DNA of 56,111 nucleotides from a virus (lineage: Duplodnaviria > Caudoviricetes), in the IMG/VR virus record IMGVR_UViG_3300027712_000037, positions 1 through 56,111 of that record. One strand, written 5' to 3'. Position 1 is the first letter of the stretch; each line of letters begins with the position of its first letter. The notes below the pieces were generated by a model. It worked only from the letters and a program-made list of their open reading frames with translations. It was not told the DNA's origin and searched no databases. Positions 1,517 to 49,893 of the stretch are shown here, one piece after another. The position numbers and the translations under genes are program-made.

Positions 1517-2023
1517 TTATTTTAAGAATTCGTCGATTGATAAATCGTAATATAATGAATTAATTCTATGGACACCTATCAAAAATAACACGAAACTGGC
1601 TACACTGCTTCCCCTGCCCACTCCCCATACTATATTATTTGCTCTCATAGTATCTACCAAATACTTAAGATAACGTAATAAATCAAACATTTCACGCTCT
1701 TGGAACAGTATTAATTCTTCACCAACTCGTTGTAATTCTGTGTTATTTTGACATAAATCTAGTACATATTTAGCAATATCAAAATTCTTATATTCTTCAG
1801 GCATTAACCAATTATTTTGCAAATTGCTATCAAATTCTTTTACGGTTAATTTAGGATCAGAATACAGTATAGTATTTGGTATATCAAATAATTCTAAGTT
1901 GTCTGAAAATTTTATAGGAGTTTCTACCCAAACTTCTTTTAATTTTCGTAAAGGATCTTTCAAATATAATCCACAGAGATCATCTTCTGTGTAAATTTGT
2001 TGCCCATACAAATCTGTTTTCAT
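1517..2023 (-). CDS. dnaE: DNA polymerase III alpha (DnaE)-like N-terminal palm fragment
   Basis: RVGEEL..F...LRYLKYLVD...NIVWGVGRGSSVASFVLFLIGVHRINSL...IDEFLK corresponds to the DnaE GPGRGS...FERFL segment; start set at ATG 2023, 5 nt after a -10 box. Confidence 0.85.
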   Translation of the reverse strand: MKTDLYGQQIYTEDDLCGLYLKDPLRKLKEVWVETPIKFSDNLELFDIPNTILYSDPKLTVKEFDSNLQNNWLMPEEYKNFDIAKYVLDLCQNNTELQRVGEELILFQEREMFDLLRYLKYLVDTMRANNIVWGVGRGSSVASFVLFLIGVHRINSLYYDLSIDEFLK

Positions 2024-2028
2024 AACTG

Positions 2029-2057
2029 ATTGTAACACCACTTAAGGTAAACATCAA
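2029..2057 (-). promoter_or_regulatory. sigma70-type promoter giving a leaderless dnaE-N transcript
   Basis: TTGATG-17 nt-TACAAT with extended -10 TGn; ATG 5 nt downstream. Confidence 0.65.
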
Positions 2058-2060
2058 GAG

Positions 2061-2660
2061 TTATTTGTCCAAATTTAAAAAAACAATCTCATTGTCTGTA
2101 GAAGAATCTTTTTGTTTCCAAGCTAATCCCAAATCAATCCAATCATTGGTTTCTTTTTTTAGCTCGACTATTTTATCTTTTTTATTTAGTTTCTTTGCCC
2201 AATCTGTAATACAAGGTCCAGAATTATTCCACCAAGAAACATTTCTATTCCAAAAGTCAACATGTTCATCATGGGTAACATAAAATTCCACATCATCAGA
2301 AATCAATGATGAAATTTTTATTTGTGTAACATACAATTTACTATCGGTAATAGTATTAATCTTTTTTAATAATACTAATGCTACAATTTGATCGTATGGT
2401 TCTTCAGGCAATGTGCAAACTTTTAATCCTGCCTTAATATAATTTTCAATTACATTCTTATTAGTTTCGTGTACAAAAACACAATTATCCACACCATTAA
2501 TAAACAAATGTTTAATGCGATCTAATGCAATGTTTTGTATTGATATATCTTCAACGGTTACTTCCATGTAAAGCCTAATATTATAGGTATTAATTAGGAA
2601 TTTATTTTCATAATATAAGCCTGCTTGAAAAGCAAAATCTTTTGATACTCTAGCGCTCAT
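2061..2660 (-). CDS. hypothetical protein, possible degenerate QueD/PTPS T-fold
   Basis: 199-aa ORF; VSKDFAFQA...NTYNIRL...DRIK...VDN...LPEEP pattern echoes QueD but lacks the Zn histidines. Confidence 0.45.
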   Translation of the reverse strand: MSARVSKDFAFQAGLYYENKFLINTYNIRLYMEVTVEDISIQNIALDRIKHLFINGVDNCVFVHETNKNVIENYIKAGLKVCTLPEEPYDQIVALVLLKKINTITDSKLYVTQIKISSLISDDVEFYVTHDEHVDFWNRNVSWWNNSGPCITDWAKKLNKKDKIVELKKETNDWIDLGLAWKQKDSSTDNEIVFLNLDK

Positions 2661-2886
2661 TTTGTTTCTTTATGTCAATCTTTGAACTAATATTTTGCTT
2701 TTTTATCATTTCATCCATTTTCTTTTGATATTCGGCTTTATAGCTGTCAATTACCATTTGTATTTGATGAATTAGCGGACCATTTCCAGTCTTATAAGCA
2801 AAATTTAACTTTCCAGTAAGATCGGATATCGTAGTTTGTAACTCTTCTAATTTTTTATCAGATAAATTATTTATAAATGGATGCAT
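2650..2886 (-). CDS. hypothetical helical protein
   Basis: 78-aa ORF in operon. Confidence 0.7.
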   Translation of the reverse strand: MHPFINNLSDKKLEELQTTISDLTGKLNFAYKTGNGPLIHQIQMVIDSYKAEYQKKMDEMIKKQNISSKIDIKKQNER

Positions 2887-2890
2887 TTAT

Positions 2891-4159: not shown

Positions 4160-4180
4160 AATTCATTTCCAATATAGTAT

Positions 4181-6700: not shown

Positions 6701-6701
6701 T

Positions 6702-7322
6702 TTATCCTTGAAGCATGTTCAATGCAATTTGATAATGATGCTTTCTGTCTTCTAAACCAATGGTTCCGCCATTAATTCTCTTAGTCAATGTAACAAAATC
6801 ATCACGGTCACAATATTGATTTAATTTATTATTATCCCAAAACCATGCTGCACTAACCAGTGCTCCATTTGGAGTTTCTAAGTATGCAATGGTGTCTTCT
6901 ATACTCATGTTTAATGCCTGTGCAAACTTAGTATAGTTGTCTCTTCCTGTTAATTGTATTAACCCACGACCACAAAAACGATAACCATCACCAGACGCTT
7001 CATCACCGTTTTTCATTCTATTAGCATAGACACGGTTAGCTATCTTTTCTGGTTTTTTCTCGTATTGTTTTGCGGTAGCTTCATCAGGAAAATACTTTTT
7101 AAAAGTAGTCATTAATCCCTTAGCACTATAATTCAAATTTTCTTTTATAGCAGTAAATCCACCTGATTCATGTGCTACCTGTGCTAAAAATCCTGCTATT
7201 CTTTTTGGATTTTCAAACATCTCATAATACTCGCCCACAGTATTAATTGGTTCTACATATTTTTCTAAAATTGTAGGTTTTGTTTTTGGACAAATTGTTT
7301 TTAGTATATTTAAAGTTATCAT
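6702..7322 (-). CDS. GH19 chitinase-like lysozyme/endolysin
   Basis: [43 protein letters not shown] motifs; ATGA overlap with the upstream stop at 7319-7322. Confidence 0.92.
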
Positions 7323-10300
7323 ATTGTTCCACTCCACCATTGTAATGTGTTACTACACCAAAGTTGCCTAGAAGTATTAGCCGCAGCCGTTACTGATGCA
7401 TTAGCTGATAGCGTATTAATTTTGCCGGTAGCTGGCGGAAATATTGACAAAGTACTATTACCGATATTAGTAACATAAAATACTGCCCCCACAGGTCCCT
7501 GTGGTAATATTACAGCGTTAGAACCACTAACGGATGTTACCATATTAATATCATAAGTTCCTAAAGTAGTAGTAGTATTAGCTATAGTAGTACCGGATGC
7601 TGTTACATTTCCTACTTTTCTTATAATATTTCTACCAGATGTAATACTATTGGCACTAATATTTCCAGTAGTAGTGTTATTTCCTGTTGTACTTAAATCC
7701 CCAAATATGTTTACACCAGTGCCAGTAATTGCTGTAGTAAGATTTCCAACTGCTGTTAAGTTAATATTACTATTGGTACTAATAGTAATATTACTATTAC
7801 CATTACTAAGATTCCCTATTAAAGTAGTCGCACTTATAACATTACAACCAGTAATATTACCACTTGAACCACCACCAATAGTAAGTACATTGGCGCTAGC
7901 GTTGAAAACTAATCCTGTAGTACTTACTTTTCCTGCTTGTCCGGCGCCAGCTGCACCTACCATAACTGGATACAATGGAGAAGTAGAAGTATCATTAGAT
8001 GTTGTCAATGTAGATCCACCCGGGGCACCGCTATAACCTGAATATCCACTGGTCCCAGTATAACCACTTATACCTGAAACACCTGAATAGCCACTAGTAC
8101 CTGTATATCCGCTAAGTCCAGAAAAACCACTTACACCAGTATATCCACTTGTACCTGAAGTACCCGAAAAACCACTAATACCTGAAAAACCACTAATACC
8201 TGAAAAACCACTAGTACCTGAAAAACCACTAGTACCTGAAAAACCACTAGTACCAGTATATCCTGAAGTACCTGAAAAACCACTAGTACCAGAATATCCT
8301 GAAGTACCTGATGTACCACTAGTACCTGAAAATCCACTAGTACCTGAAGTACCACTAGTACCTGAAGTACCTGAAAAACCACTAGTACCAGTGTATCCTG
8401 AAGTACCTGAAAAACCACTAGTACCAGTGTATCCTGAAGTACCTGAAAAACCACTAGTACCAGTATATCCTGAAGTACCTGAAAATCCACTAGTACCAGA
8501 ATATCCTGAAGTACCTGAAAAACCACTAGTACCAGTATATCCTGAAGTACCTGAAAAACCACTAGTACCAGAATATCCTGAAGTACCTGAAAAACCACTT
8601 CTACCTGATGTACCTGAGTAGCCACTTACACCTGATGTACCTGAAGTACCGCTAGTACCAGAATATCCTGAAGTACCTGAAGTACCACTAGTCCCTGAAG
8701 TACCTGAAAAACCACTTACACCAGTATAACCACTAATACCCGAAATACCGGAAAACCCTGAAGGACCTCTAACGGGCCCAATATTAGAATATGTGTTATC
8801 CCCATTACTTAATGCACCATCTCCTGCATTATAACCGCCACCGGCATTTAATACAATGTACAGGTATCCTGCAGGTTGCCCAGTTGGTAGAAAAGTATAG
8901 TTGGTTACAGATCCTTGAATAGCGACTGATTCACCTGAGTATCCACTTATGCCTGAAGTGCCACTAGTGCCTGAAGTTCCACTTATGCCTGAAGTACCAG
9001 TATAGCCCGATATGCCACTAGTTCCTGAAGTACCGGTATATCCCGATATACCACTTGTACCTGAAATACCCGAAGTACCAGTATAGCCCGATATGCCACT
9101 AGTACCTGAAATACCCGAAGTACCAGTATAGCCCGATATGCCACTAGTACCTGAAAATCCACTTGTGCCTGATGTACCACTCGTGCCTGATGTACCTGTA
9201 TATCCACTTACACCGGTATATCCTGATATACCGCTTGTTCCTGAAGTACCAGTATATCCCGATATACCACTTGTACCTGAAATACCCGAAGTACCAGTAT
9301 AGCCCGATATGCCACTCGTACCTGAAGTACCTGTATAGCCCGATGTGCCACTAGTACCTGAAGTACCTGTATAGCCCGATGTGCCACTAGTACCTGAAGT
9401 ACCTGTATAGCCCGATGTACCACTTGTTCCTGAAAATCCACTAGTACCTGAAGTGCCGCTAGTACCTGAAAATCCACTAGTACCTGAAAATCCACTAATA
9501 CCCGATGTGCCACTCGTACCTGAAGTACCTGTATAGCCCGATGTGCCACTAGTACCTGAAGTACCTGTATAGCCCGATGTACCACTTGTTCCTGAAAATC
9601 CACTAGTACCTGAAGTGCCGCTAGTACCTGAAAATCCACTAATACCCGAAGTACCACTTATACCTGATGTACCACTAATACCTGAAAATCCACTAGTACC
9701 CGAAGTACCACTAGTACCCGAAGTACCACTCGTACCTGAAAATCCACTCGTACCTGATGTACCACTAGTACCTGATGTACCACTAGTACCTGAAAATCCA
9801 CTAGTACCTGAAAATCCACTAGTACCTGAAAATCCACTAGTACCTGAAAATCCACTAATACCCGAAGTACCACTTATACCTGATGTACCACTAGTACCAG
9901 TATAGCCCGATATGCCACTAGTACCTGATGTACCACTAGTACCTGAAAATCCACTAGTACCTGAAAATCCACTAGTACCTAAAAATCCACTAGTACCTGA
10001 AAATCCACTAGTACCTGAAAATCCACTAATACCCGAAGTACCACTTATACCTGATGTACCACTAGTACCAGTATAGCCCGATATGCCACTAGTACCTGAA
10101 AATCCACTCGTACCTGATGTACCACTAGTACCTGAAAATCCACTAGTACCTGAAAATCCACTAGTACCTGAAAATCCACTAGTACCTGAAAATCCACTAG
10201 TACCTGAAAATCCTGAAGTACCAGTATAACCACTTCTACCTGAAGTACCACTAGTACCTGAAAATCCACTAGTACCTGAAGTACCACTAGTACCTGAAAA

Positions 10301-11170
10301 TCCACTAGTACCTGATGTGCCGCTTGTTCCTGAAACACCAGTATACCCCGATATTCCACTTGTACCTGTATATCCACTTACACCAGTGTAGCCCGATATG
10401 CCACTTACACCAGTATACCCTGATTTTCCACTTGTACCTGAGTATCCTGAAAAACCCGAAACTGTAATAGAACTAGGTGACGCCCAAAATACTCCTGAAC
10501 CGGTCGCGGTCAACACATATCCACTAGTTCCGCCAGATATAAGAATATTAGATGTATTTCCTAAATTAATAGTGCTAACATTAGCAAAATTAGCGCTGCT
10601 AGATACATTCAATGTTCCTGTAGTGATTGCTCCGTTAGCTGTAATATTTGCTCCGATAATATTAGCAGTAGTAACAATATTACCTGTTGCAGAAACTTTA
10701 ACTACTGATGTATTTCCTATAACATTAAGATCATTATTTAAATTAGCATAATTGGCTACTAAATTGCTTAGAGTAGAAGTTCCGTTAACTTGAAGATTAC
10801 CTGCAATATTGGCATAACCATTTAAAATAATATTATTTACATTGGAAATAGTAGTTGGTAAATCTACCCATAAAGTTTGCGAACTAGAAGTAATAGTAGC
10901 GTCTTGACTACCATTAGAATCTCTACCTATACTTAATGTACTGGTATGAACTTGTACACATGCAATATTAGCGGTAACAATAACATTACCAGTTGGTCCG
11001 TTTACAGTAATACCGGCACCAGGTAATCTATTTACTGATGATACAGCCGCACCCTCAAGACCTTTAAAAACTTGTGAAAAGTTTTCTTGTACTTTCTGAA
11101 AAGCCGTCCTTATCGCATCCGCGTTTGGATCATCAGGAAAGGTACCAAAGTCTATATTTTGCTGGCTCAT
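7319..11170 (-). CDS. long tail-fibre-like protein with Gly-X-Ser/Thr triplet repeats
   Basis: N-terminal IDFG..PDD..AD.IRTAFQK.QENF fibre-attachment motif; about 2.4 kb of [12 protein letters not shown] triplets; GATAAATA at 11194-11201. Confidence 0.8.
8030..10460 (-). repeat. coding tandem repeat of 9/18-bp units
   Basis: Units such as ccactagta/cctgaagta/cctgaaaat on the + strand; one unique interruption at about 8760-8935. Confidence 0.95.
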
Positions 11171-15890: not shown

Positions 15891-16847
15891 TTATTGATTC
15901 ATATAACCACCGGCCGGTGGAATATAATTACTGTTTCCTGCAACAGGACTATTATTACCCTTCGGCGTAATAGGACTTAATATTGTGTCGTATGATTCAG
16001 TTAAACCAAATCCTTGAACAATATTTCCAGGGGTTTTGCCATCCATAGCACCTGCATTATAAACTACAGTTTCATATCCTAAATCCATTTGAATATCCAT
16101 TGTACCACCGCCTTCTGCATAGCTATATGTATCATGATTCAATGAATTAATAATTGGATTAATTAGTGTATATGCAGTAAATTTATGTTGATTAAATCCA
16201 AATATAGTAATATTTTTAAAAAAAGGAATTTTAATTAAACTAGGGTTAGGACTTTCTCCCCAATAACCCCAATTATTATTACCAACAATATTATCTGTAT
16301 TTGTGTAAATGTTTCTATAATTGTAATTAGCATCTGTTGCTGATTGCACAGACTCGTCTCCGCCCTGAGTTGGTCTAGCAATTCCGCCTCTAGCACCTTG
16401 AAAGACAGCACCAAAATTTGAACCATCTTTATAATAGTATGTATAATATGCATCCCATAAACTGGTAATCATATTATCATTATCATCATGAAAATTAATA
16501 GTAACAGGATTATATTTGATTTTAGTTTGTACGATTCTTTTTCTATTGTATTGATTAAGTTCAACCGTGTTTATTTGATAGCTAGGTAATTTAACACTTT
16601 TAACTACAAGGCCAAAATTGTCACCAGTACTTATATTTTGATCATATGCTGGTTGATTAATTTCAAAATACACATGAAATAAAAATTTAAGTTTAGGTGC
16701 CCTTTGATAAACACCAGTTCTAAATATTTTTGCTGCGTGTTGTGCATCACGCAGATTTGCACCAGCAGGAGAATAAGTTTTACCGTCATTGGAAGGACTG
16801 GGTTTACCAGTCCTTCTTTGTAAGTTCTCCCCGTTAGAATTGGCCAT
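15891..16847 (-). CDS. tail-tube-fold baseplate/tube initiator protein
   Basis: PKLKFLFHV.F...VKSVKLPS...YN...K.KYNPVTINFHDD parallels the adjacent tube protein. Confidence 0.7.
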   Translation of the reverse strand: MANSNGENLQRRTGKPSPSNDGKTYSPAGANLRDAQHAAKIFRTGVYQRAPKLKFLFHVYFEINQPAYDQNISTGDNFGLVVKSVKLPSYQINTVELNQYNRKRIVQTKIKYNPVTINFHDDNDNMITSLWDAYYTYYYKDGSNFGAVFQGARGGIARPTQGGDESVQSATDANYNYRNIYTNTDNIVGNNNWGYWGESPNPSLIKIPFFKNITIFGFNQHKFTAYTLINPIINSLNHDTYSYAEGGGTMDIQMDLGYETVVYNAGAMDGKTPGNIVQGFGLTESYDTILSPITPKGNNSPVAGNSNYIPPAGGYMNQ

Positions 16848-16858
16848 GCGTTACCTTA

Positions 16859-17491
16859 TTAGGCTACGCTTGTAGCTGTATCTGTTGGGTTTCTTTGTGG
16901 TTGTGCTACCTGTCCTACGCCTTCTTCGACTCCATTGTATCCTGTTTGGATAGCGTTGTCGAATTGTACTGTCAATGCTATTTTGATATCTTCGCTAGTG
17001 CCGTAGTTAACTGTGTTATAGTTAACTGCTTCTAGGTAACAGCCAACTAAATACCATGTTTCAAGTATTTGCGGTGTTGCAATTCCATTACCACCGTCTA
17101 AAATTTCTAAAGTCATTGAAAACTTATAGTCACTTGAAGAAGCAGCACTGGCTTGTTCTGCCATATCTAATTGTCTTTGCAATTGCGCACCGATCGCTCT
17201 AGATACTGCACCTGAAGCATCATCACGCACATTTATAGACATTGTTTGCCATGTATGCTTGCCTGCCATGTAAATGGTAGAGTTGTATACTGGTAGTGTA
17301 ATCTTAGCAAATGAAAGGTTTGGTCTGGAACAATCAACAACTTGGCGTGTTAATTCGAGACCATCTCCAAGACCAAAATTGAAAAAGTTTAGACGGTATC
17401 TAAACTGTAACTTTGGCATCAACAATGTCTGATTACTAGCATTGGTATCACTTGCTGACAGATTAACTAGTGTTTGTGAGGCTATCGCCAT
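16859..17491 (-). CDS. tail tube protein (T4 gp19-like)
   Basis: MPKLQFRYR...RPNLSF...YNS.IY.AGKHTW...RDD...LETW.L.GC...QFDNA; directly after the sheath gene; GATAAATA at 17513-17520; AGGAG RBS. Confidence 0.9.
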   Translation of the reverse strand: MAIASQTLVNLSASDTNASNQTLLMPKLQFRYRLNFFNFGLGDGLELTRQVVDCSRPNLSFAKITLPVYNSTIYMAGKHTWQTMSINVRDDASGAVSRAIGAQLQRQLDMAEQASAASSSDYKFSMTLEILDGGNGIATPQILETWYLVGCYLEAVNYNTVNYGTSEDIKIALTVQFDNAIQTGYNGVEEGVGQVAQPQRNPTDTATSVA

Positions 17492-17554: not shown

Positions 17555-20500
17555 TTATAGAGCTGCTAACTCACCTGTATTCAAAATACGAACTGGGATG
17601 TAGATGAATTCAACAGCCTTAACCGGCTCAATCGCAACGTCTACCCAAAGCTCATTTCTATCAATTCTAGCAGGAGTGTTGTTTGACTCATCACATACAA
17701 CTAGATAATCATATATACCACGTTTTGCTTGTAAATCAAGCATTAACGATGTTACTACGTTTGCAATTTGACCTCTAGTAAATGCATCGTTAGGTTCAAA
17801 TACGAACGGCCGTGCTGCAATAGTTAGTTGACGACGAATGTACGCAATTAATCTTGCAACGTTAGTTCTATCTAATGCACTTTGTGAATCAAAGCTTGTT
17901 TTATTACCATAATTCAATAAACCATTTCCGGTAAAGAAAACCAAAGGATTTATGAAGTTAAGATATAATACATCACGAATTCCTATTCTAGTTTTAGTAG
18001 GTTCAAATTCACCTGTAGTTCTATTTACATAGCCAATGTTTGCTGCATTGTCAATAATGCCTCTTCTTGTACCTGCTGCTGCTAACCAAGGATAAGCAAT
18101 AGTATCATTGCGTAAGAAAGTACGCAACATCATGTGTGATGCAGGAACCGCTACTTCATTACCTGCTAAATCAAATGCTATTCCACTTGGATAAAACAAA
18201 CCTAAGAAAGTATTGCGTGTTACACAACCTTCTTCACCTGTACTTGTTGCACCTGCTGCATTTGTAGCCCAAGCTTGAATAGCGGTTGCACTATCAGGTA
18301 ATCCTAATGGTGTATCACCTAATATGTAAGCTGTTTCCCCGCGATCGGCATTTAACACTACCATATTAGGTTGTAATTCAGGATAATTAGGAGTAGCCAT
18401 TAAGCTAAAGTAGTTGTCTTCATCACGAATATTAGGATTAGTATCAATCGTAGATCTTAATGATTCTACTACCATTGCTCTTTGAGCCTTACGACCCATA
18501 TATGGGCTACCATTAAATTGTAATCCGCTAGCTGATACCCATGCGTCCCTTTCAGTAGGCAGTGATTCACCAGGGAAACTAGTCGAATTAAAATAATTAA
18601 CCCTATATTGTTTAACATTATAACCTGAACGGCGTGTATTAAACAATAACATTCCTACTGGATATGTGCTTGGACTTGGCGCATCCAAATCTAAATAATT
18701 ACTGAGTAACAAACTTGCTATTGATGCAATAGGATCGTCTGCTGGATTAACATTACCATTGGTTGCCCAACGAGCATCAGCAAATACTATACCGGTACTA
18801 TTAACTTGATCCGTATTGTCTATTAGTACCCACATATCTTCTCCGTCAACTTGTTGCCAACGAGAAATTACAGGATAATCTTCTAGATTAGTAGTGTCGA
18901 TCCAAAGATCACCGTAAACTAACGGTGTACCATCACTTTGTACAATTGGTTCAGTTGGGGTTACAATGGGACCAGCTGGATCAGTAGTATTACTTCCCGA
19001 TATCGGGAATCCATTAGAATCATAGTTAATATTCCTGTAGCCGCGCCATCCGTTTGTAGTATTTACCATAATGTCAACTTGATTTACTACACTATAAAAC
19101 CAATTTGTGTTATTAGCAGGTGCTGCTACTGGTGCACCTTCATTAGCTGTGTAATCAAAATCAACCCAATTACTTAATTCTATGAGATTAGCTACAGCAG
19201 GTATACCACCACTATAGGCTACTGAGATTAACCCGCCTCCGTCAACTTCAGCAACTTTTAGTAATAAGTCATTTGCAGGGGATTGACCACCGAGATTGGT
19301 TCCTAAAACCCTAATATTATCACCTACAGCATATCCAGATCCTTGGTTATTACCAATAGAAATATCTGAATAGCTCCCCCATGCTGTAACATTTAATTTA
19401 GCGTCCGCCCCTGATCCACCTGTAACAGGGACATCAACAAATCGATTAAATAAAGTAGGTCCAACTTTAACACCTATATCTCCAATATTAAATCCAGCTT
19501 CTACTACTAAGCCAGAAGATGTACCTTGGAGTTGATTTCTAATTGAACCTACTTCAAATGTAAGATCATTTGTGGTGAGTATTCCGCCTAAATTATTTCC
19601 GGCAATGGACAGCGTGTCACCGACAGCATAACCTGTACCTGAATTAACAATTGTTATTGTGGTGTTACTGCTAGTATAAGTTGTACTATTTCCTGTTTTA
19701 ACTACGATAGCAAAAGCTCCAGAACCAAGACCTGACTCTGTAATAACAGGTACATTAGCATATATTCCAGGTCCTGGAATACTAGTTCCTGCAATACTTC
19801 CAGAATTTACTGTCGCCAGCAAACCAAGCACATTAACTACATAATAATCATTCAAAATGATTACACCGCCCTCAGTATGTGTTAATTGAATCGCGCCATT
19901 ACTTGCTACACTAGCAGTAGTATACAAAATATTTGCTGCCGACCATGCAGTAACAAACTCAGTAGCGTCTGCATTATCTCCTAAATTTACAATATATGAA
20001 CTAGATAATCCAGATGCACCAGGGATAGAAACGTTTACCTGAAAGCTATAGGGTCCATTGGTAAAAAGCGGAGAAGTATTTGTACCAGTAATTACTGTAG
20101 GACCGGTAGCATATCTTTCCCAAAAATATACAGAATTAGTTGTCGCTAAACCATCACTATTATAATATTGAGAATATATTGTCCCTGCAGGAATTTTTTT
20201 ACCACCTGTGGGGTCCAATACTGCACACGCTTCCCAGTCACTGGTAAATAAAGTTGCATTTTTGTTAATCCAAGATGCGGTTACTGCGTCATATTGAGAA
20301 ATATTTGGTAGTAGTCCATTACCCGCAGATCCAACTTTTACCCATACTGAACCAGTAGGTCTAGGAAAGGCTTGTCCAGTTTGCCACAATGGTTGCTGTG
20401 CTGAAGTTCCCCACTGTAATAAAGGTGGCAAATAATTACCTTGATTAATTCCTAAATCATCAAGTACTGTACCCGTAGGTCCAGATATTTGAACAGTTTG

Positions 20501-38870: not shown

Positions 38871-39557
38871 TCAGATGAATTGCATGTAGTACTGTTCTAC
38901 TCGGTTAAACCATTTGTCTGTATAAACATCAAAATCAGTACCTTCAAGAACAAATTCTTGATATTCGTTAGCTGCTGAACACATAAAAATAACGCCTTTA
39001 CGAATTTTTGTACCATATAATTCGTTGTGTGCATTAGCATATGCTGCCAATTGTACAAAATAGTCTTCTATCCATTCACGTTTTTTAGGCTTATTTGTTT
39101 GTTTGTGGTCCATAATAGATTCTGAACCTTCATGTAACCCTACCAAATCTGTCGTACCTGCATAAATTTTAGGAAAATATAGCGTTACTTCTGTTCCCCA
39201 AAATTCATTACATTTACTTAGACCTTGATCAATAATTGACCTAGCCATTTGATGACTTTGAATACTGTATGGATTAGTACCTGGTTCGCCCATTGCGCCG
39301 GTTTTAATATAATCCTCAAGCCATTTATGCATTCTTGTGCCACGGCCCGCTGCTTCTGTAGTAATTTCTTGTGCTTTGGCATGTCCTACACGCTTACGCC
39401 AATTAGCTAATGCTTGTTTACTTTCTTCTGATTTTGTTGCGTCTAGAATAGTTGTTACACTAGGCAATTTTTCTCCATCGGGAGTTGCATAACGGCGTTT
39501 GCCCTCAACTTCTACCCTAGACATAGAAATATAATTAAATTTATCAGGTTTATACAT
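38871..39557 (-). CDS. PD-(D/E)xK exonuclease
   Basis: R.Y.TPDG.KLPSVTTIL...RGT.MH...E..L....YAGTTD...DHKQ...QL.AY. Confidence 0.88.
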   Translation of the reverse strand: MYKPDKFNYISMSRVEVEGKRRYATPDGEKLPSVTTILDATKSEESKQALANWRKRVGHAKAQEITTEAAGRGTRMHKWLEDYIKTGAMGEPGTNPYSIQSHQMARSIIDQGLSKCNEFWGTEVTLYFPKIYAGTTDLVGLHEGSESIMDHKQTNKPKKREWIEDYFVQLAAYANAHNELYGTKIRKGVIFMCSAANEYQEFVLEGTDFDVYTDKWFNRVEQYYMQFI

Positions 39558-40972: not shown

Positions 40973-40974
40973 AT

Positions 40975-42719: not shown

Positions 42720-43130
42720 TTAGTTTGTAAATGTAGCTGTTGCACCGCCAGTTGTTGTATTAGCAACTGAAGCTGCTGTTAATGCTGCGTTAACCGCAGC
42801 AACAACATTAGCGCTAGCACCTAATGAATTGTCTACTGCCCATGCACCTGTTGGGTACACTGCGAAAGCCAATGAGTTTGTGCTTGCATCGTTGTACTCA
42901 TAGATATAAACAGTAGCTAGTTGCTGAACTGTTTGTATAATGAGGTTAACTTGAGTTGTACTGAATGTTGTGCCACTAGCTGCTGAAATTGTGAAATAGT
43001 CTAGCTTTGGGCCTTGTGGCTGAACTGATACGTTAGCTGTTACTGCATTAACTGCACCGACTGTATAAGCAGGTGAGTCATAGTTCATTACTGGTTGAAA
43101 GTCACCATGTGTACGGGTAAATTGTGCCAT
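42720..43130 (-). CDS. small virion protein (decoration-like), monocistronic late unit
   Basis: Own CATAAATA (43176-43183), leader hairpin TGAGAC/GTCTCA (43153-43169), AAGGA RBS and terminator; A/T/V-rich. Confidence 0.65.
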   Translation of the reverse strand: MAQFTRTHGDFQPVMNYDSPAYTVGAVNAVTANVSVQPQGPKLDYFTISAASGTTFSTTQVNLIIQTVQQLATVYIYEYNDASTNSLAFAVYPTGAWAVDNSLGASANVVAAVNAALTAASVANTTTGGATATFTN

Positions 43131-43209
43131 TTTAAAAATTCCTTATGTTTGTTGAGACCTACTGTCTCATACAATTATTTATGCCAAATTAAAAAAATAC
43201 CGATTTTGG

Positions 43210-44370
43210 TTACGCTCTTCCAGCTAAATTTTGTCTACTGAAACCCATTCTGTCTACAAACTTAAGCCCATTAGAAACGAACCCTTCTTGGGTTTGCGTA
43301 CCATCTTGAAGATATCCTTTTACAGGGCTAGCTTCAGCGGCGGTGTTTAATTGCTGAACTACATTCATCTTAAGATTGTATATATCTATCCATATAGTAA
43401 ATGCACCAATCAACCCTTCTTTATTAGCTTCTAAATGTTCATCTATCTTGGCTCGCATCTTATCAGTCATTGGTCTAGAAGAAACAAATTCTATAAATCC
43501 TTCTAGTAAATTATTTAAATCTCCCTGAACGATCCGTTTGTTTACATATACAGTAAACAATTGATTAAATGTATTTCTAGCTTGAGGAGCAGTATTCATT
43601 AACTGATGAACGGCCTGACCATATTGAGAAATATCCTGTTTAGCTTTGGCTAATAGTTTTTGGTCCATTTTTAAAGTAGGAGTAATAGGCATCTTACTAG
43701 GAATAATAGCAACATTACTGTTGTTTTTTAGTTGACCTATTGTGCCATCTAACGGCGCCGCAGCATCAGTGTTTGGTGCTTCAGGTTCTATATACTGATG
43801 CACTGCAATGCCAGCAGTTTTACCTGTCATTAATTTACCAGTTTCGCTGTCAACATCTACTGTATATGTTATGCCGTTAGGGTTAGCTTTAAATTTGTAT
43901 AAACCATTAACGTCTTTCAATGGTTGGCTAAACAACAAGTCACCCCAATAATACCCCTGAGTACCAGCACTTGCTTTTTCTAGCCCAGGCCATATCTCTG
44001 CCATTAAATTATGTAGGCCAGACCGGTCTACCTCACGGGCTAAATCATACTCTCTAAATTGCTTAGGACTATAAACTTGTCTGCCTGTGCCGTCTTTTTT
44101 ATTAAACATATGTTTGTCCATGATACTAAATCTACCTTTAGAATCACGACCAAATATGAGTGCAGGATAACCATCCCACTTAATAGAAACAGTTTTTGGA
44201 TTTGAAACTGTTTTTACAATAGCATCTACCGCTTTTTGAGCACCTGCAACATCTCCCAAAAATATCAAATCTTCAGGATGATCTAAATGACCTTTATCTT
44301 CAGTCAACGGCGGCAGAGATAAAGTCTCTAACTTACTTTTAAGTAAAGCCAAAGACTCAGAAAGATTCAT
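43210..44370 (-). CDS. DUF6267-like protein with ligase-superfamily motifs
   Basis: HLDHPED...SIKWDG.PA.IFG...WGDLLF...EGFV...KFVDR..FS..N; ATGA overlap at 44367-44370. Confidence 0.65.
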   Translation of the reverse strand: MNLSESLALLKSKLETLSLPPLTEDKGHLDHPEDLIFLGDVAGAQKAVDAIVKTVSNPKTVSIKWDGYPALIFGRDSKGRFSIMDKHMFNKKDGTGRQVYSPKQFREYDLAREVDRSGLHNLMAEIWPGLEKASAGTQGYYWGDLLFSQPLKDVNGLYKFKANPNGITYTVDVDSETGKLMTGKTAGIAVHQYIEPEAPNTDAAAPLDGTIGQLKNNSNVAIIPSKMPITPTLKMDQKLLAKAKQDISQYGQAVHQLMNTAPQARNTFNQLFTVYVNKRIVQGDLNNLLEGFIEFVSSRPMTDKMRAKIDEHLEANKEGLIGAFTIWIDIYNLKMNVVQQLNTAAEASPVKGYLQDGTQTQEGFVSNGLKFVDRMGFSRQNLAGRA

Positions 44371-45401
44371 TTTTGACCCCAATACTTTACCGGTTTCTTT
44401 TTATTTTCTGTTACTTTTGATGCCCATGAATCACTTGGGGCATTATTAGCCGGCGCCGCAGGAGCTGCTGCAGGACTACTAGCAGGTTGCTGAGTAGGTT
44501 GGGGTTGATTAGGTTCTTTAGGTGATGTATCTTGGGCATATGATACAGCATACAAATCATTTGCTAATTTTGTAAGTGCTGCTTTACCCTTGTCTTTACT
44601 ATAAGTATCTTCTACATTTTTAATTAAACTCTTAATATGATTAACTGAATTAGCATCACCAAAGCTAGTACCAGCCATATACTGTTTGACCCATTTTGTC
44701 AAAAATTGAGATATGGTTTCTACCCCTGTTGGTGTGGGTGCTGCTGTTGGTGTGGGTGCTGCTGTAGGTGTGGGTGCTGCTGTAGGTGTGGGTGCTGCTA
44801 TTGGATCAGCCTCACCTATAATGCTTTCAAAAATTGCATTTAATTTATCATAAGTTGAACTTTCGCTAAACCCTGCTCGGCGCATTTGTGCAATCTGTGC
44901 GGGTGTCCTTTTGTCTGCTGCAAAAGTTTTTTTGGTTGGTGGAGGCATATTAGCCACCCTTTTGTCTCTAGCTACATTGTTCTGCATAGACTTTATTTGC
45001 ATAGCATGTATTGGAGTATTACCAATGGTAGGTCTACTTGGAGGAGCTGTTGTAGGTGCGATAGAAGGTTTAGATGCTGCTGGTGCAGTAGGTGTAACAG
45101 GCTGTGCTTCCGGTGCAGCTGGCTGTGTAGCAGGCTGTGTAGCAGGCTGTGCTGCTGGTGTTACATTTGTTGTTATTCTACCACTAGTGATACCTGAATT
45201 TAATGTAGCACTTGCACGGCCTAAAAAGTTTTGAAGAAACTTTTCTTTAGCCATTTTATCTTGAATGGACATTGCACCTTCAGGTTTACCGGTTATTCTA
45301 TTTCCTAACTGCTTTGCAGCAGCCGCGCCGTAATCACCAATCCAATTACTTAAAGCCTCTTCTAACCTACGAACTTCATCATCAATACTACGGCGCTTCA
45401 T
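44367..45401 (-). CDS. Pro/Ala/Thr-rich hypothetical protein
   Basis: 344-aa ORF with QPA and APTPTA repeats. Confidence 0.7.
   Translation of the reverse strand: MKRRSIDDEVRRLEEALSNWIGDYGAAAAKQLGNRITGKPEGAMSIQDKMAKEKFLQNFLGRASATLNSGITSGRITTNVTPAAQPATQPATQPAAPEAQPVTPTAPAASKPSIAPTTAPPSRPTIGNTPIHAMQIKSMQNNVARDKRVANMPPPTKKTFAADKRTPAQIAQMRRAGFSESSTYDKLNAIFESIIGEADPIAAPTPTAAPTPTAAPTPTAAPTPTGVETISQFLTKWVKQYMAGTSFGDANSVNHIKSLIKNVEDTYSKDKGKAALTKLANDLYAVSYAQDTSPKEPNQPQPTQQPASSPAAAPAAPANNAPSDSWASKVTENKKKPVKYWGQK
44727..44798 (-). repeat. 18-bp tandem repeat x4 (APTPTA)
   Basis: ggtgtgggtgctgctgt(t/a) units. Confidence 0.9.
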
Positions 45402-45636
45402 GATTCTTCCTTATGCTTTTAGCAAATCTATTTTGATCTTTTCCCTTTATAGCACTTAAAAGTTTACGCTCCAATACTTCAGAGGTATTCTTATCATAAT
45501 GTTTATTAATCAATTCAATTAAATTAATTGCACTAGTGATAATATTATGAGCCCTATTTTCTATAACATGTGTCATATCACGGTTACTTCCAATAGATTC
45601 TAGTTCTTCCAAAAGGCTACGGGTTTTCTTTTGCAT
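45388..45636 (-). CDS. hypothetical late protein
   Basis: 82-aa ORF; CATAAATA at 45656-45663. Confidence 0.72.
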   Translation of the reverse strand: MQKKTRSLLEELESIGSNRDMTHVIENRAHNIITSAINLIELINKHYDKNTSEVLERKLLSAIKGKDQNRFAKSIRKNHEAP

Positions 45637-45664
45637 ATATAATATATCCTAATACTATTTATGC
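45633..45664 (-). promoter_or_regulatory. late promoter in a hairpin that pairs with the start codon
   Basis: GCATAAATAGTAT-taggat-ATATTATATATGC: 13-bp stem (1 mismatch, 1 GU), SD in the loop, ATG in the 3' arm. Confidence 0.6.
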
Positions 45665-45675
45665 CCATTTAATAA

Positions 45676-47079
45676 TTATTTCTTTAATCCGTTCAATATG
45701 CCCTTTAATCTAGATTCAGCAGTAGTTGCTATAACTCTTTTACTTTCAGGCTCTACTGTAGAATGTACAATGTCATTTACTGTAGATTGTGTTTTAATTT
45801 TATTAATAATATCGTTAGGAGTAGGAGCGGGTGGTCTATATGTATTAGCTTCAGGATCGGGGTCGGTAATTCGCAGTGTTTCTACATTAAACTCTAATTC
45901 GATTTTTTGACCTACGCCACTACTGCTTCTAGTTTTCATTAATTGCAATTGATATTGACCACGCTCACGCATACTGCGACTTGTAAAAATACCAAATACA
46001 TTATCTGCTGTATTAATTTTACTAATACCACCACTAATATGACTATGATCAAATTCAATTTCTTCAACCGCACTACGGTTCAATTGACTCGCCGTTACGA
46101 ACAATACATTTAATTCTTTTGCTAAGTTACGCAATTCTTCTGAGACATACTTGTCCTTAACAAACAAATCTGAAGGACTTACCTTTGCACTAACAGGCAT
46201 AAGCAAATCCAAATAATCTACACATAAAAAGTCTATTTTAACTCCTGTCTGTATTTGCAATTCTTTACAATATGCTCGCAAATCGTTAACTGTACTTTGT
46301 GCAGGCATATATTTGATGCGTAACTTGCCTGCCTTTTTGGCAAGCATTTTGATTTTCATTTCAACATTGTCAATATCTTTAAAGATATCTCGACTACTAG
46401 TATCAGTCATCATGCTATCTATACGCATACTACACAGACCTTCACTAAGTTCTAATGTAATATAAGCTCCATTCAACCCTGCTTGAGTCCAATTTACCGC
46501 AAGATTTTGCATGAATAAACTTTTACCAGAACCCGATCCCCCGGCGAAAATTTGCAATTCGCCCCTATTAAATCCTCCATAAAGTTTTTGATCCATGCTA
46601 GGCCAACCTGTACTATTCTGTCCATTATTACTTTTAAGCTGAGAAAGTCTAGCCCTAGGGTCAGCAAAATAATCTGTACCCATGTCTTTTTGTAAACTAA
46701 TTTGCACGGCATCTTTAATTAATTTTTCAACTGGACCAAAATCTCCCTTCTCTAACAAGTCAGCACTTTTAAGAATTGCTCTTTCTAGCTCTTGCCTTTT
46801 TGTGAATTTTTCAAATTCATCTAAAAACCAGTCATAATGCCCATCATCAAGTTCAGGAATAATATCTACAGATATTCCTGTAGATGCTTTGATTTGCGTA
46901 GGATCAGGCATTATATTATATTTTTTACTGTGCTCAACTAAAAAGTCTGCTACAGGTTTTAAATTGCGATCAAAATTACTAGAATTCATTATATTCATAA
47001 CTCTAGTATATAATTCTGCGTTAGTAACCATCATACGCAAAAACAATAATTGCATATCATTATTATATTCGTTGCTCAA
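45676..47079 (-). CDS. dnaB: replicative DnaB-like helicase (T4 gp41-like)
   Basis: GGSGSGKS Walker A, YITLELSE, CVDYLDL, SEELRNLA, TASQLNR, KTR. Confidence 0.93.
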   Translation of the reverse strand: MSNEYNNDMQLLFLRMMVTNAELYTRVMNIMNSSNFDRNLKPVADFLVEHSKKYNIMPDPTQIKASTGISVDIIPELDDGHYDWFLDEFEKFTKRQELERAILKSADLLEKGDFGPVEKLIKDAVQISLQKDMGTDYFADPRARLSQLKSNNGQNSTGWPSMDQKLYGGFNRGELQIFAGGSGSGKSLFMQNLAVNWTQAGLNGAYITLELSEGLCSMRIDSMMTDTSSRDIFKDIDNVEMKIKMLAKKAGKLRIKYMPAQSTVNDLRAYCKELQIQTGVKIDFLCVDYLDLLMPVSAKVSPSDLFVKDKYVSEELRNLAKELNVLFVTASQLNRSAVEEIEFDHSHISGGISKINTADNVFGIFTSRSMRERGQYQLQLMKTRSSSGVGQKIELEFNVETLRITDPDPEANTYRPPAPTPNDIINKIKTQSTVNDIVHSTVEPESKRVIATTAESRLKGILNGLKK

Positions 47080-48034
47080 GTTTTCTCCTTTGAATTTCTA
47101 TTTTGACTCTATTACTAGTAGCACATTGTAAAATACTTAACAATGTAGGTAGTTTACCATATTTTACTACTGCATCATTAACATCTTTTACATCAGAATC
47201 CCATTTTGGAATACTAACACTATATCCCAACTCTAAAGCCCTATTACAAGTTTCTAATCCAGTTTTATCACGATCCGGAACAAAAATAATTCGTCTGTTT
47301 AATTGGCTTAATAGTTCTACCTGATCATCATTGATTGTGTTATGTGTCAACGCACAACAATTCAAACTCAATGCATCAAAAATACCTTCTACCAATATAC
47401 AAACTTCATACTCAGGCTTTTGAAAATCAATACCAAATACATAACCCGACTGTTGTTGATTTATATATTTAGGTGTTTTATTATCTAAGAAACGACTAGT
47501 GTAACCTACTACTTTATTTTCATAAGTATAGGGAATGATTATTCTATTGCCTTGCCGCCCCTTTGCATTTGGAGTAATTATGAATGGATAATCACTAACA
47601 TTTATGCCCCTAGATCGTACATAATCAACATATACTTTGTGTGAGGGATTTTTAGTATCAAGTATTTCACCCTCAGGTAAAGTTTCTTCTTTAAATTTAA
47701 TTTTTTTCTTAGATTTTTTGATCTGTATAAAATCTAATATATCTTTTTTCTGTAGACTTTCTAAGCTCCAACGCTGTATTTGAGACTCATCTATACCACA
47801 CCATTGTAAGAAATTTTTTGTATTTTTTGTAATACTTTTTCCTAAAGTGAACCCGCACTTGAACCCACAATTAAAGCAATGCATACTCCAGTTTGGTCCA
47901 TCGATTCGTAGACCAGCACGACCTCTTTTATCTGCTTTGTGTCCACGGTGATGACAACACACAGCATTGAATCCATGCCAACCGCTTTGTGTTAGTTTTT
48001 TCTTACCCGGAACTATAGTTAGTATTTCAAACAT
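47063..48034 (-). CDS. DNA primase (Zn-binding domain plus Toprim)
   Basis: HCFNCG, RIIIP...GYTSR...PKY, LVEGIFDA, PDRDKTG, KDVND; adjacent to the helicase. Confidence 0.88.
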   Translation of the reverse strand: MFEILTIVPGKKKLTQSGWHGFNAVCCHHRGHKADKRGRAGLRIDGPNWSMHCFNCGFKCGFTLGKSITKNTKNFLQWCGIDESQIQRWSLESLQKKDILDFIQIKKSKKKIKFKEETLPEGEILDTKNPSHKVYVDYVRSRGINVSDYPFIITPNAKGRQGNRIIIPYTYENKVVGYTSRFLDNKTPKYINQQQSGYVFGIDFQKPEYEVCILVEGIFDALSLNCCALTHNTINDDQVELLSQLNRRIIFVPDRDKTGLETCNRALELGYSVSIPKWDSDVKDVNDAVVKYGKLPTLLSILQCATSNRVKIEIQRRKLEQRI

Positions 48035-48069
48035 ATTATGATTATAGCATAATATGCAGTAAAATACAA
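48032..48069 (-). promoter_or_regulatory. sigma70 promoter whose -10 sits in a hairpin loop, with ATG in the 3' arm
   Basis: TTGTAT-17 nt-TATAAT (TGn extended); CATATTATG-ctataat-CATAATATG. Confidence 0.75.
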
Positions 48070-48077
48070 TAACTAGG

Positions 48078-48857
48078 TTACCTTGCCAATATGTTAGTTA
48101 TTGCACCGGTATTGCTAACAAATTGCATACGGATATATGGATGAAATCCGCGAATGGTATAACCAAAAGTATCAGATACATTACTATAAGTTGAAGTAGT
48201 TATGGGGTACCAATCAGCATCTACAATAGTAGAACCTTCTATAGTAACATCTCCATTGAATTGATAGTAATGGGCCTGAATGGTAAGTATTGGATTAGAA
48301 TCGGTGTTGATTACGCTACTATAGTATGTATTAGCATTTGGTAATGCATTTTGTATGCTATTGTTAGAATCAATGTTTGGAAAAGGCTGTCCTGTAGGAA
48401 TAGTAATATTTGAACTTGGTACAAATGATGGCAAAACGCTATTAACGATATTCATATCACCACGAGCTCCTGCATTTTGATCAACAAACACAGGAAAATT
48501 AAATTCACCTACTGGTATTTCTAATGAATAGTGAGCCTGTTGTGCAGGAATATCTTCTACTTCTGCTGCATTTAATATTAATGCTGCAATACCAGTAGCC
48601 GGTAGTTGAAGTGTTAATGCCTTTCTAAGTAACACTTCAGTGCCATTATAATTAATAATTCTACAGGAAATTTCTTTACCTGTAATATCTACCGGCTTTT
48701 GCTCCTGATTTAAGAATTGAAATTGTATTTGATTATCAACTCCCTTATTTAAAGTTAATGGCTTAGAATATACAGGCATATATCTCCTCGGTGAAGTGCC
48801 GGTTAAAAGTACAACAATTTGACGCTGAGTATAAAGAAATACAGCAGTTGAGTACAC
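48078..48857 (-). CDS. hypothetical late (probably virion) protein
   Basis: 259-aa beta-rich ORF, GTG start, GGGAG RBS, CTAAATA at 48876-48882. Confidence 0.7.
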   Translation of the reverse strand: MYSTAVFLYTQRQIVVLLTGTSPRRYMPVYSKPLTLNKGVDNQIQFQFLNQEQKPVDITGKEISCRIINYNGTEVLLRKALTLQLPATGIAALILNAAEVEDIPAQQAHYSLEIPVGEFNFPVFVDQNAGARGDMNIVNSVLPSFVPSSNITIPTGQPFPNIDSNNSIQNALPNANTYYSSVINTDSNPILTIQAHYYQFNGDVTIEGSTIVDADWYPITTSTYSNVSDTFGYTIRGFHPYIRMQFVSNTGAITNILAR

Positions 48858-48948
48858 AATTTAGCTCCCTTTGTGTATTTAGTCCCAAAATATTAAATTA
48901 TTATATAATTGGTTGCCCGATTAAATAGAATGTATTGTAAAAATAATA

Positions 48949-49329
48949 ATGATTCAAAATGAATTTTTTAAAAAACTTAGCGAAACACATCCGTTTATAA
49001 CGGTATGTTCCTATGCCAATCAGGATTATGTAGGAATAATTCAGAATAAAGATGATAGCATTACTACTATATATGATTATGGATCAATAATAGATAGTAA
49101 TGTTAGAACTAGATTTTTAGAATTAGGGGATACATGGTGGTGGGAATCAAATAGATTGATTCCCATTAATTTATTCTTAAAAGAAGAATGGCTGCCTTTT
49201 AAACCTTATTTGAGGACCTTTACTAACAAAAGTTTAATAATATTGCACGGACCAGTATGCAGCATGAATGAATTACACAAGCGTAGAAGTAAGCGCAGAA
49301 GTATCACTCTTGTCAAAAGAATGCCTTGA
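48949..49329 (+). CDS. hypothetical protein
   Basis: 126-aa ORF with WWWESNR..PI motif; TTAAATA at 48921-48927; 57-nt convergent overlap with dnaE-C. Confidence 0.72.
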   Translation: MIQNEFFKKLSETHPFITVCSYANQDYVGIIQNKDDSITTIYDYGSIIDSNVRTRFLELGDTWWWESNRLIPINLFLKEEWLPFKPYLRTFTNKSLIILHGPVCSMNELHKRRSKRRSITLVKRMP

Positions 49330-49893
49330 TTCTTCTAACAAGTTCATATGAACTCCAACTAGAGTAGCATAAGAAATTGCATGTGCTTTTTTAAACTGAT
49401 ATCCATCATCGGCTTTATCCCATACTGTTTTACTTATTTCTGACCAAAATTTACCAATTAAATGTTTTTTGGCAGGACGAATCAATGCTAAAAACATTGC
49501 TAGTCTAGGAATACTATTAACAGGCTCAGGCATTTTCTGCAATGATTGATAATGATTTCCTAGATGAATCAATTTTTCCACAAACTCTTTATTTTTTAAG
49601 TTATCCCAATTTGGATTACGCATTAATTCAACTAAATGTAGTTCATCCTTGACTTGATTATATACATGAACATTCAACAAATCTAACTTAAAATACCCGC
49701 GCTGTTCAGCATCTGAATAGTCAATAGCTGCCATATCATTAACAGGGTCATATGGAATTTGAGTGACATGTATACCTGTAGCATGTTTACGCTGTGGTTT
49801 AACTTTACGCATTGCGGCGGGGATATACTTAATATGTTGGAGAATCTTTTCTCTATCCCCAAAATCAATATCAACATCCGATTGAATTTTCAT
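49273..49893 (-). CDS. dnaE: DNA polymerase III alpha (DnaE)-like catalytic fragment
   Basis: SDVDIDF, KHATG, GYFKLDLL, LALIRP and GYQFKKAHAISYA match DnaE PDxDxD, HAxG, KxDFLGL, ALxRPG and YGFNKSHxxxYA; ATGA overlap at 49890-49893. Confidence 0.88.
   Translation of the reverse strand: MKIQSDVDIDFGDREKILQHIKYIPAAMRKVKPQRKHATGIHVTQIPYDPVNDMAAIDYSDAEQRGYFKLDLLNVHVYNQVKDELHLVELMRNPNWDNLKNKEFVEKLIHLGNHYQSLQKMPEPVNSIPRLAMFLALIRPAKKHLIGKFWSEISKTVWDKADDGYQFKKAHAISYATLVGVHMNLLEESRHSFDKSDTSALTSTLV

Follow-up and report, generated by a model that had tools for sequence, protein, structure and literature searches.

Two short open reading frames (ORFs) lying 47.2 kb apart in a phage genome fragment raise the question of whether together they encode one DNA polymerase and, if so, what such an enzyme would do. 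The fragment constitutes the entire IMG/VR record IMGVR_UViG_3300027712_000037 (56,111 nucleotides; hereafter, the window). CheckV rates this record as 16% complete – the window is thus a fragment of an uncultivated jumbo-phage genome of roughly 350 kb. From sequence comparisons we consider it probable that the two ORFs, here called the N-half and the C-half, encode the two subunits of a ‘minimal split DNA polymerase III (Pol III) alpha’ typical of group 2.2 jumbo myophages (the RaK2/121Q/PA5oct/Atu_ph07-like phages), auxiliary to a family B replicase. A sequence-only reading of the window had offered the paired architecture as the likely novelty; comparative genomics had, however, already described such a Pol III alpha, ‘minimal’ and ‘split’, in group 2.2 jumbo phages (Iyer, Anantharaman, Krishnan, Burroughs, Aravind 2021; Viruses 13:63; PMC7824862).

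Both ORFs lie on the minus strand, the corresponding plus-strand frames being riddled with stops:

1517..2023, minus strand: putative N-half of a minimal split Pol III alpha-like polymerase, 168 amino acids (aa) from ATG; PF07733, phrog_11127
49273..49893, minus strand: putative C-half of a minimal split Pol III alpha-like polymerase, 206 aa from ATG; phrog_11778
49876-49878, minus strand: codon of C-half D6
49870-49872, minus strand: codon of C-half D8
49681-49683, minus strand: codon of C-half D71
49381-49383, minus strand: codon of C-half H171

The two proteins total 168 + 206 aa (~374 aa). Residues 99-168 of the N-half are a palm segment with a GxGRGS nucleotide-binding motif (G134-S139), and the protein ends ...GVGRGSSVASF...IDEFLK before its stop codon, the terminal stretch being NNIVWGVGRGSSVASFVLFLIGVHRINSLYYDLSIDEFLK. 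The C-half starts with MKIQSDVDIDF and carries the catalytic residues D6, D8 and D71, a KHATG motif, an IRP motif and the finger motif YQFKKAHAISYA with H171.

Database and profile comparisons tie both halves to Pol III alpha. The N-half matched PF07733 in Pfam (positions 22-94 of 260, E 2.4e-8) and phrog_11127 in PHROGs (E 3.4e-41), and an N-half profile of 58 sequences aligned with five bacterial DnaE proteins at an hhalign probability of 89.5% (E 2e-6). This alignment placed N-half residues 99-168 on DnaE 329-398, finishing exactly at FERFLN; N-half residues 1-98 occupy the place of PHP and the first palm part in DnaE. The C-half had no match in Pfam and matched phrog_11778 (E 1.1e-54). A profile of 75 diverse C-half homologues (28-56% identical to the window, mostly 185-216 aa long) found Pol III alpha only among PDB sequences (9/9 matches, best E 7.6e-6) and aligned with five bacterial DnaE proteins at an hhalign probability of 97.3% (E 2e-11).

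The residues expected of a C-family active site are conserved across both sets of homologues. C-half D6/D8/D10 align on Escherichia coli D401/D403/D405, K69-x-D71 on K553-F-D555, R139-P140 on the RP of FRPG, and F167..H171..Y175-A176 on F756..H760..Y764-A765, with YQFKKAHAISYA lying on E. coli 754-765. H760 of E. coli Pol III alpha is reported as a proposed steric gate (PMC8485763). Across the 75 C-halves, D6, D8, K69, D71, R139 and P140 are invariant, and D10, H37, G40, K168, H171 and A176 are at least 90% conserved; across the 58 N-halves, G134, G136, R137, G138, S139 and S140 are invariant. Together, then, the halves carry the GS nucleotide-binding motif and the three catalytic aspartates of the C-family core, and the C-half also has the finger motif (YGFNKSHxxxYA type) that contacts deoxynucleoside triphosphate (dNTP) and template. 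These motifs suggest a Pol-beta-like palm fold for the paired halves.

Set against bacterial DnaE, the two halves meet end to end at the FERFL / PDxDxD junction. By alignment, the break falls between the GS-motif helix and the DxD strand, inside the catalytic palm, and the active-site residues are divided between two chains. We found no inteins, nor is there room for them: each half can be aligned with DnaE or with a naturally fused protein (described below) to its very end, the alignment to DnaE running up to the last residues of the N-half and from residue 3-6 of the C-half onward.

To gauge how far the core is reduced, we compared the sequence spacing between invariant columns in the bacterial DnaE alignment and the C-half alignment:

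DxDxD to KHxxG (thumb region; D10 to H37): 27 residues in phage, 108 in bacterial DnaE
KHxxG to KxD: 34 in phage, 51 in bacterial DnaE
KxD to RP: 68 in phage, 82 in bacterial DnaE
RP to finger His (R139 to H171; within fingers): 32 in phage, 114 in bacterial DnaE
After the YA motif: 31 residues in phage, more than 300 in bacterial DnaE

The region names rely on E. coli domain limits that we take to be 1-270 for PHP and about 433-510 for the thumb; these limits reportedly go back to Lamers et al. 2006. Neither half had a PHP match in Pfam at E up to 1. By these measures, the thumb, (HhH)2, clamp-binding and OB parts of replicative DnaE/PolC are lost in the pair.

Most of what the sequence-only reading said about the two ORFs themselves withstood these comparisons. 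Its coordinates and quoted residues were correct (strand: minus), its end-to-end join before the catalytic aspartates reappeared in the alignments to bacterial DnaE and to PDB sequences, and its three retained aspartates and fingers motif proved to be, respectively, invariant in the 75 homologues and alignable with E. coli. The claimed lack of intein ends agrees with the alignments and with the short linker of the fused form. The claim that PHP, HhH, OB and clamp-binding regions are absent and the thumb nearly gone was borne out by spacing and domain searches, the thumb being judged from sequence spacing. Both ORFs were also said to be intact and to have expression signals, and here the frames were intact but the signals did not hold up. 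Promoter and terminator scans did no better in the window than in shuffled sequence, sigma-70-like sites being no commoner than in shuffles (14 vs 16.8 and 33 vs 31.4 expected), and Shine-Dalgarno-like stretches were weak, as in the 37-nt spacer upstream of the N-half.

We next asked whether the halves travel together. Searching phage records with tblastn, we found the C-half in 96 and the N-half in 94, with matching C-half/N-half counts by genus of 34/34 for Escherichia, 11/11 for Pseudomonas, 11/10 for Klebsiella, 8/8 for Salmonella and 8/8 for Erwinia. Within the phage collection, identity to the window reaches no more than 49% for the C-half and 54% for the N-half. Each of the five complete reference genomes carrying the C-half (n=5: PA5oct, PBECO4, Atu_ph07, RaK2 and Vibrio phage 2.275.O) has a single N-half, and the N-half endpoint ...EFLK is common to the homologues of all five. 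Among 21 N-half-bearing IMG/VR contigs of at least 73 kb, the C-half is present in 13, and it is present in 7/7 of those that are at least 43% complete.

The arrangement of the two genes is likewise recurrent. They are separated by 30-182 kb in the five reference phages and by 37-128 kb in the 13 IMG/VR contigs (assessed by hand). In the window and the five references, the two genes share a strand and the C-half gene precedes the N-half gene, a layout also seen in 11/13 IMG/VR contigs. In G012 (the contig behind L049) the halves lie on opposite strands, 128 kb apart, and in G018 (the contig behind L078) the N-half is 49 kb upstream of the C-half.

We also identified natural proteins in which the two halves form a single chain. 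A C-half search of 1.84 billion representatives returned 368 clusters with E no higher than 1e-3. Of the best 150, P0288 (375 aa) alone exceeded 233 aa. Residues 79-180 of P0288 correspond to the window N-half (42% identity, E 1e-22) and residues 190-372 to the C-half. This fused form, 375-376 aa long, comprises three 90%-identity clusters and 5 distinct sequences (P0288, P0393, P0394, P0407 and P0408) from 10 contigs of up to 33 kb and two assembly sources. It is colinear: N-half, a linker of ~10 residues (between EFIK and DFDID), C-half. In a quick maximum-likelihood tree of 88 C-half rows (midpoint root), the fused forms make up one clade (support 100) within an 11-row clade (support 96) whose remaining members are stand-alone C-halves. 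Because the fused clade is nested among stand-alone C-halves, the fusion looks derived from split forms, as judged from this tree. A scan of viral contigs with the fused protein found no relative, and a scan of Joint Genome Institute (JGI) metagenomes with the fused alignment found one locus, cut by a contig end.

Both halves are under purifying selection. We estimated the ratio of nonsynonymous to synonymous substitution rates (dN/dS) by the Nei-Gojobori method, for which dS was usable in 93 of 3081 N-half pairs and 2 of 78 C-half pairs. The N-half ratio was 0.093 between the window and its closest relative, L012, with a median of 0.23 and a range of 0.04-0.37 over the 93 pairs; the two usable C-half pairs gave 0.12 and 0.18. 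Homologues of conserved length are very abundant in metagenomes, where at 90% identity they form 5251 C-half clusters and at least 7999 N-half clusters. A scan of 185,579 species genomes with a closer set of C-halves found the C-half on at least 4 contigs, all of them short contigs of metagenome-assembled genomes (MAGs); the C-half family is likely phage-restricted. PF07733 is reported to be the only unique gene of the PGC_A jumbo-phage cluster found in at least half of its phages (51.9%; Weinheimer and Aylward 2022).

Co-occurrence, conserved catalytic residues, purifying selection and the natural fusion thus make it well supported, at the level of sequence, that the ORFs are complementary intein-free halves of a miniature C-family core that must work together. 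Two checks proposed with the sequence-only reading, on co-occurrence and on dN/dS, came out in favor of the pairing.

To see whether the pair belongs to an ordinary multi-part DnaE, we searched for other polymerase domains in nine relatives: the 5 reference phage genomes and 4 IMG/VR contigs from the window’s nearer lineage (2 at 100%, 2 at ~76-77% complete). PolB (PF00136) is present in 5/5 reference genomes and 4/4 IMG/VR contigs, where its open frames are 900-981 aa long. PHP was found in 0/5 reference genomes and 0/4 IMG/VR contigs, and HHH_6 in 0/5 reference genomes. DNA_pol3_finger gave sub-threshold matches alone, inside the C-half ORF, in 3/5 reference genomes, and PF07733 gave one match per genome – the N-half – in 4/4 IMG/VR contigs. 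Since the relatives carry a full PolB and no PHP or HhH, we favor an auxiliary polymerase over a multi-part DnaE. The search for a separate replicative polymerase, another check that had been suggested, was thus positive in 9/9 relatives’ records, and the refuting case named there, of other ORFs supplying the missing domains, is excluded in these relatives (PHP 0/9, HHH_6 0/5).

PolB itself varies in layout. Its matches fall in two separate frames in PA5oct (217618-221395; 825 + 379 aa) and Atu_ph07 (212336-213688; 578 + 418 aa). PBECO4, RaK2 and the Vibrio phage each have a single frame, about 1000 aa long. Given the two-frame matches, the main replicase may be split as well in some lineages.

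To gain insight into the role of the pair, we examined the genes around each half:

45676..47079, minus strand: DnaB-like replicative helicase (DnaB_C, E 9.7e-21)
47063..48034, minus strand: DnaG-type primase (Toprim_2, DNAG_N)
48078..48857, minus strand: protein at the place labelled ‘virion structural protein’ in relatives; weak PHROG matches only
48949..49329, plus strand: phrog_11637 gene, 126 aa; convergent with the C-half gene, the two overlapping by 57 nt at their 3' ends
49890..50582, minus strand: PhyH-like dioxygenase gene; its TGA stop and the C-half ATG share the sequence ATGA (49890-49893)
787..1176, minus strand: Cpn10/GroES-like gene, two genes downstream of the N-half
L002:3525-3923, L003:33428-33781, L004:6563-6922, L005:6593-6949, L006:6616-6993, L092-L108: phrog_11637 gene at other loci

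The C-half belongs to a conserved block that runs from the C-half through a small convergent ORF, a virion-type protein and the primase to the DnaB helicase. The C-half/primase/DnaB block is found in 5/5 reference phages, the window and a MAG contig, L115. At the other end of the C-half, the ATGA overlap at 49890-49893 suggests translational coupling with the PhyH-like gene. The N-half has a neighborhood of its own: the order N-half, small ORF, Cpn10 holds in 6/7 genomes tested, with no Cpn10 match in RaK2. Downstream of the N-half, the window also encodes a Bax1-I family membrane protein (2-493, minus strand); in PA5oct, an ‘FtsH-interacting integral membrane protein’ lies about 12 kb upstream of the N-half and a chaperonin two genes downstream.

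The small convergent ORF, phrog_11637, is closely linked to the C-half gene. The two stand tail-to-tail in 6/6 genomes and 16/17 further loci (22/23), the one miss being cut by a contig end. The 3' ends are at most 50 nt apart in 12 of 16 loci, and the genes often overlap there. The phrog_11637 protein is frequently more conserved than the C-half. It gave no Pfam or Atlas lead and 0 matches in a PDB sequence search. From its position and conservation we regard it as a candidate accessory subunit or (antisense) regulator.

These observations suggest how the enzyme could work. The N-half would contribute a strand-helix unit whose GxGRGS motif binds the incoming nucleotide by its triphosphate. 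The C-half would contribute the strands bearing the metal-binding D6, D8 and D71, together with a shortened finger module whose YxFKKxHxxxYA motif would contact dNTP and template. Neither half would be active alone; the two would assemble non-covalently, with no intein, into one Pol-beta-like active site. The resulting enzyme (~374 aa) would synthesize DNA on a template, probably distributively; it would have no built-in proofreader, and PHP, thumb, HhH, clamp-binding and OB parts would all be missing. Its place would be that of an auxiliary to a T4-type family B replicase, the gene for which would lie in another part of the genome.

For its role we tentatively prefer the short extension of RNA primers before hand-off, a possibility suggested by the fixed adjacency to primase and helicase and by analogy with Bacillus subtilis DnaE. 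A further and rather doubtful elaboration is a three-part machine, in which the two halves would form the active site and the phrog_11637 protein would either stand in for the lost thumb or clamp-binding parts or dock the polymerase on the neighboring primase-helicase, making the whole a ‘Pol alpha-like’ primer-extension polymerase of a T4-type replisome.

The same heterodimeric enzyme might instead work in repair, gap filling or recombination-dependent replication, and we regard this possibility as about equally likely as primer extension. A small, exonuclease-free and probably distributive polymerase would suit short patches, and the stretch between the halves carries recombination genes, a PD-(D/E)XK exonuclease (38871-39557) among them; on the other hand, the conserved C-half neighbors are primase and DnaB rather than repair genes, and the status of the pair as a near-universal core of the group is a better fit with a housekeeping replication role. 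Less probable is a nucleotidyltransferase that no longer copies DNA, turned to untemplated tailing, to priming or to a signalling nucleotide, for example in host takeover or counter-defence. Pol-beta-fold enzymes include many non-polymerase transferases, and the loss of thumb, clamp-binding, HhH and OB parts would, judged by spacing, remove most contacts with duplex DNA. We nevertheless think such an activity improbable: conservation extends to the finger motif for template and dNTP and to the His that lines up with H760, the proposed steric gate, and a DnaG-type primase is already encoded next door. The conservation of these same two features leads us to favor templated DNA synthesis, and it leaves the priming or template-independent role floated in the sequence-only reading without support.

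Two further explanations were considered. Other ORFs might supply PHP, thumb, HhH, clamp-binding and OB parts to make up an ordinary multi-part DnaE. As the window holds only ~16% of the genome, absence there proves nothing, and the phrog_11637 protein remains a candidate for such a part; we nonetheless rate this explanation as highly improbable, considering the lack of PHP and HHH_6 in the relatives, the location of the sub-threshold finger matches inside the C-half, the single PF07733 match per IMG/VR contig, and a natural fused form that also ends at 375-376 aa. It is scarcely credible, finally, that the ORFs are decaying remains of a complete dnaE or are mutually independent. They are far apart, small and without most DnaE domains, as decay would predict, yet they have thousands of length-conserved homologues, dN/dS of 0.04-0.37 and invariant active-site residues, and their strict co-occurrence and natural fusion already contradict this reading.

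Several observations weigh against an auxiliary split polymerase with a role in primer extension. The C-half is missing from 8/21 N-half contigs, all 8 of which are only 22-36% complete, and 2/13 IMG/VR contigs, inspected by hand, depart from the usual gene order. Comparisons with PDB are weak for both halves: the N-half profile reached a best E of 0.017, with 9/12 matches to Pol III alpha, and per-stretch scores of the C-half against PDB chains were 14.9 and 9.9 bits. N-half residues 1-98 had no match in Pfam, in Atlas or in hhalign comparison with bacterial DnaE. PolB was not found in the 56-kb window, an absence we ascribe to the window being incomplete (~16% of the genome), and the replicase is placed in this phage from its relatives. 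The sole basis for primer extension is the adjacency of the C-half to the primase-helicase pair, and an enzyme with neither thumb nor clamp-binding part may bind DNA too poorly for a role at the fork.

The closest known system is the split Pol III alpha of group 2.2 phages already mentioned. It shares with the window a pair of separate proteins encoded by distant genes, the N-terminal one binding NTP and the C-terminal one binding Mg and template; in the relatives, PolB is present as well and no other Pol III domain was found in the searches above. The window differs as an uncultivated member with the low identities given above. The 2021 study likewise describes group 2.2 phages as without other Pol III domains, and it gives the same structural reading of the split polymerase, which it sees as a model of the ancestral state (PMC7824862). 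PHROGs 11127 and 11778 are labelled ‘DNA polymerase’, and many GenBank records are annotated likewise. Literature searches found no experimental study of this split polymerase, bringing up Iyer et al. 2021 and otherwise unrelated papers. An omics study of PA5oct (PMC7318152) makes no mention of DNA polymerase, gp264 or gp196 in its main text. In the available sections of Iyer et al. 2021 we saw no mention of the fused form or of the linked small gene. Our analysis adds the fused form, the fixed neighborhoods (primase/DnaB for the C-half, Cpn10 for the N-half) and the linked phrog_11637 gene.

Bacterial Pol III alpha/DnaE (E. coli 5FKU/2HNH, Thermus aquaticus 2HPI) has the same GxGRGS, PDxDxD, KHxxG and KxD palm motifs, the same RP and YGFNKSHxxxYA finger motifs and the same three catalytic aspartates, but in one chain of about 1160 aa, compared with ~374 aa in two for the phage. 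The phage enzyme has no PHP, is ~81 residues shorter at the thumb and ~82 inside the fingers, and has no HhH, clamp-binding, OB or tau-binding part beyond the YA motif. PolC and DnaE are both reported to keep PHP, the palm-thumb-fingers core and (HhH)2 (Timinskas et al. 2014). Cyanobacterial split dnaE also makes a C-family polymerase from two distant genes, but its halves are described as bearing intein pieces and being spliced into one chain. Its break presumably lies in the fingers, near residue 774, whereas the phage proteins are divided within the palm, immediately ahead of the DxD strand.

Other systems are more distant likenesses. B. subtilis DnaE is reported to extend RNA primers and to form complexes with primase DnaG and helicase DnaC (PMC3664799). 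The likeness is one of function only: it is a second C-family polymerase beside a main replicase (PolC), and the phage C-half gene adjoins those of primase and helicase. B. subtilis DnaE, however, has its full length in one chain and binds the clamp, and the phage role is read from gene order alone. The PhiKZ split family B polymerase, DNAP-N + DNAP-C, is described as a stable 1:1 complex in which an additional DNA-binding subunit, Rhc, makes up for processivity parts that are missing (Basu et al. 2026 preprint). It too is a jumbo-phage polymerase of two separately encoded subunits, but it is of family B, comes from phage group 1 and is the main replicase.

We also encountered DnaE-like proteins that are unsplit, have no PHP and are about 560-580 aa long:

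L115:6608-8305, plus strand: unsplit DnaE-like protein
L114:514-2190, minus strand: unsplit DnaE-like protein
G024 contig C110: unsplit DnaE-like protein

They have the same palm motifs, with hhalign probabilities of 89% to the C-half profile and 70% to the N-half profile, but are single chains with a full PF07733 (19-260), a PF17657 finger domain (E 2.5e-13) and a C-terminal extension. L115, a 42-kb phage-like MAG contig, encodes both a mini C-half and an unsplit 565-aa DnaE-like protein. In the phage collection, 3/1202 matching records cover at least 80% of the unsplit protein, the best being a 484-kb uncultured phage at 37% identity. Proteins of this intermediate size may connect the bacterial enzymes with the mini forms.

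The 47 kb separating the halves in the window hold chiefly tail and virion genes, along with the exonuclease gene:

6702-7340: endolysin
7319-11170, minus strand: collagen-like fibre, a 1283-aa tail-fibre protein in which 10 stretches match phrog_5073 (collagen-like repeats)
15891-17491: tube
17555-21415: sheath
38871-39557: PD-(D/E)XK exonuclease

We considered the 38871-39557 exonuclease as a DnaQ-type proofreader and dropped it, its type being PD-(D/E)XK. A DUF6267 protein (43210-44382, minus strand; L115:4042-5268) follows the primase-helicase block and closes the stretch of replication genes; its KxDG-like motif (SIKWDG), recognized by eye, suggests a ligase-type nucleotidyltransferase. 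Beside it, a 344-aa protein (44367-45401, minus strand) has long Pro/Ala/Thr-rich repeats (e.g., AAPTPT x4) and no family match. Beyond the C-half, a 671-aa subtilase (52417-54432, minus strand; Peptidase_S8 at residues 47-351) has an N-terminal signal-peptide-like stretch, and its C-terminal ~320 aa, ending ...KTF, resemble by eye an outer-membrane beta-barrel (autotransporter-like) – unusual cargo for a phage.

Because a minimal split Pol III alpha has been published before, what the window contributes is confirmation; handles for a first biochemical test come from the fused form and from the small gene linked to the C-half. If the fused 375-aa proteins are what they appear to be, they would be a ready single-chain version of the smallest known C-family core; a three-part machine, if real, would represent a division of labor not known for T4-like phages. 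If active, a pair of ~374 aa would be the smallest C-family polymerase core known, with an active site formed from two polypeptides, and would bear on the minimum of Pol III alpha required for catalysis, on the origin of the family and on why T4-like jumbo phages keep a second polymerase.

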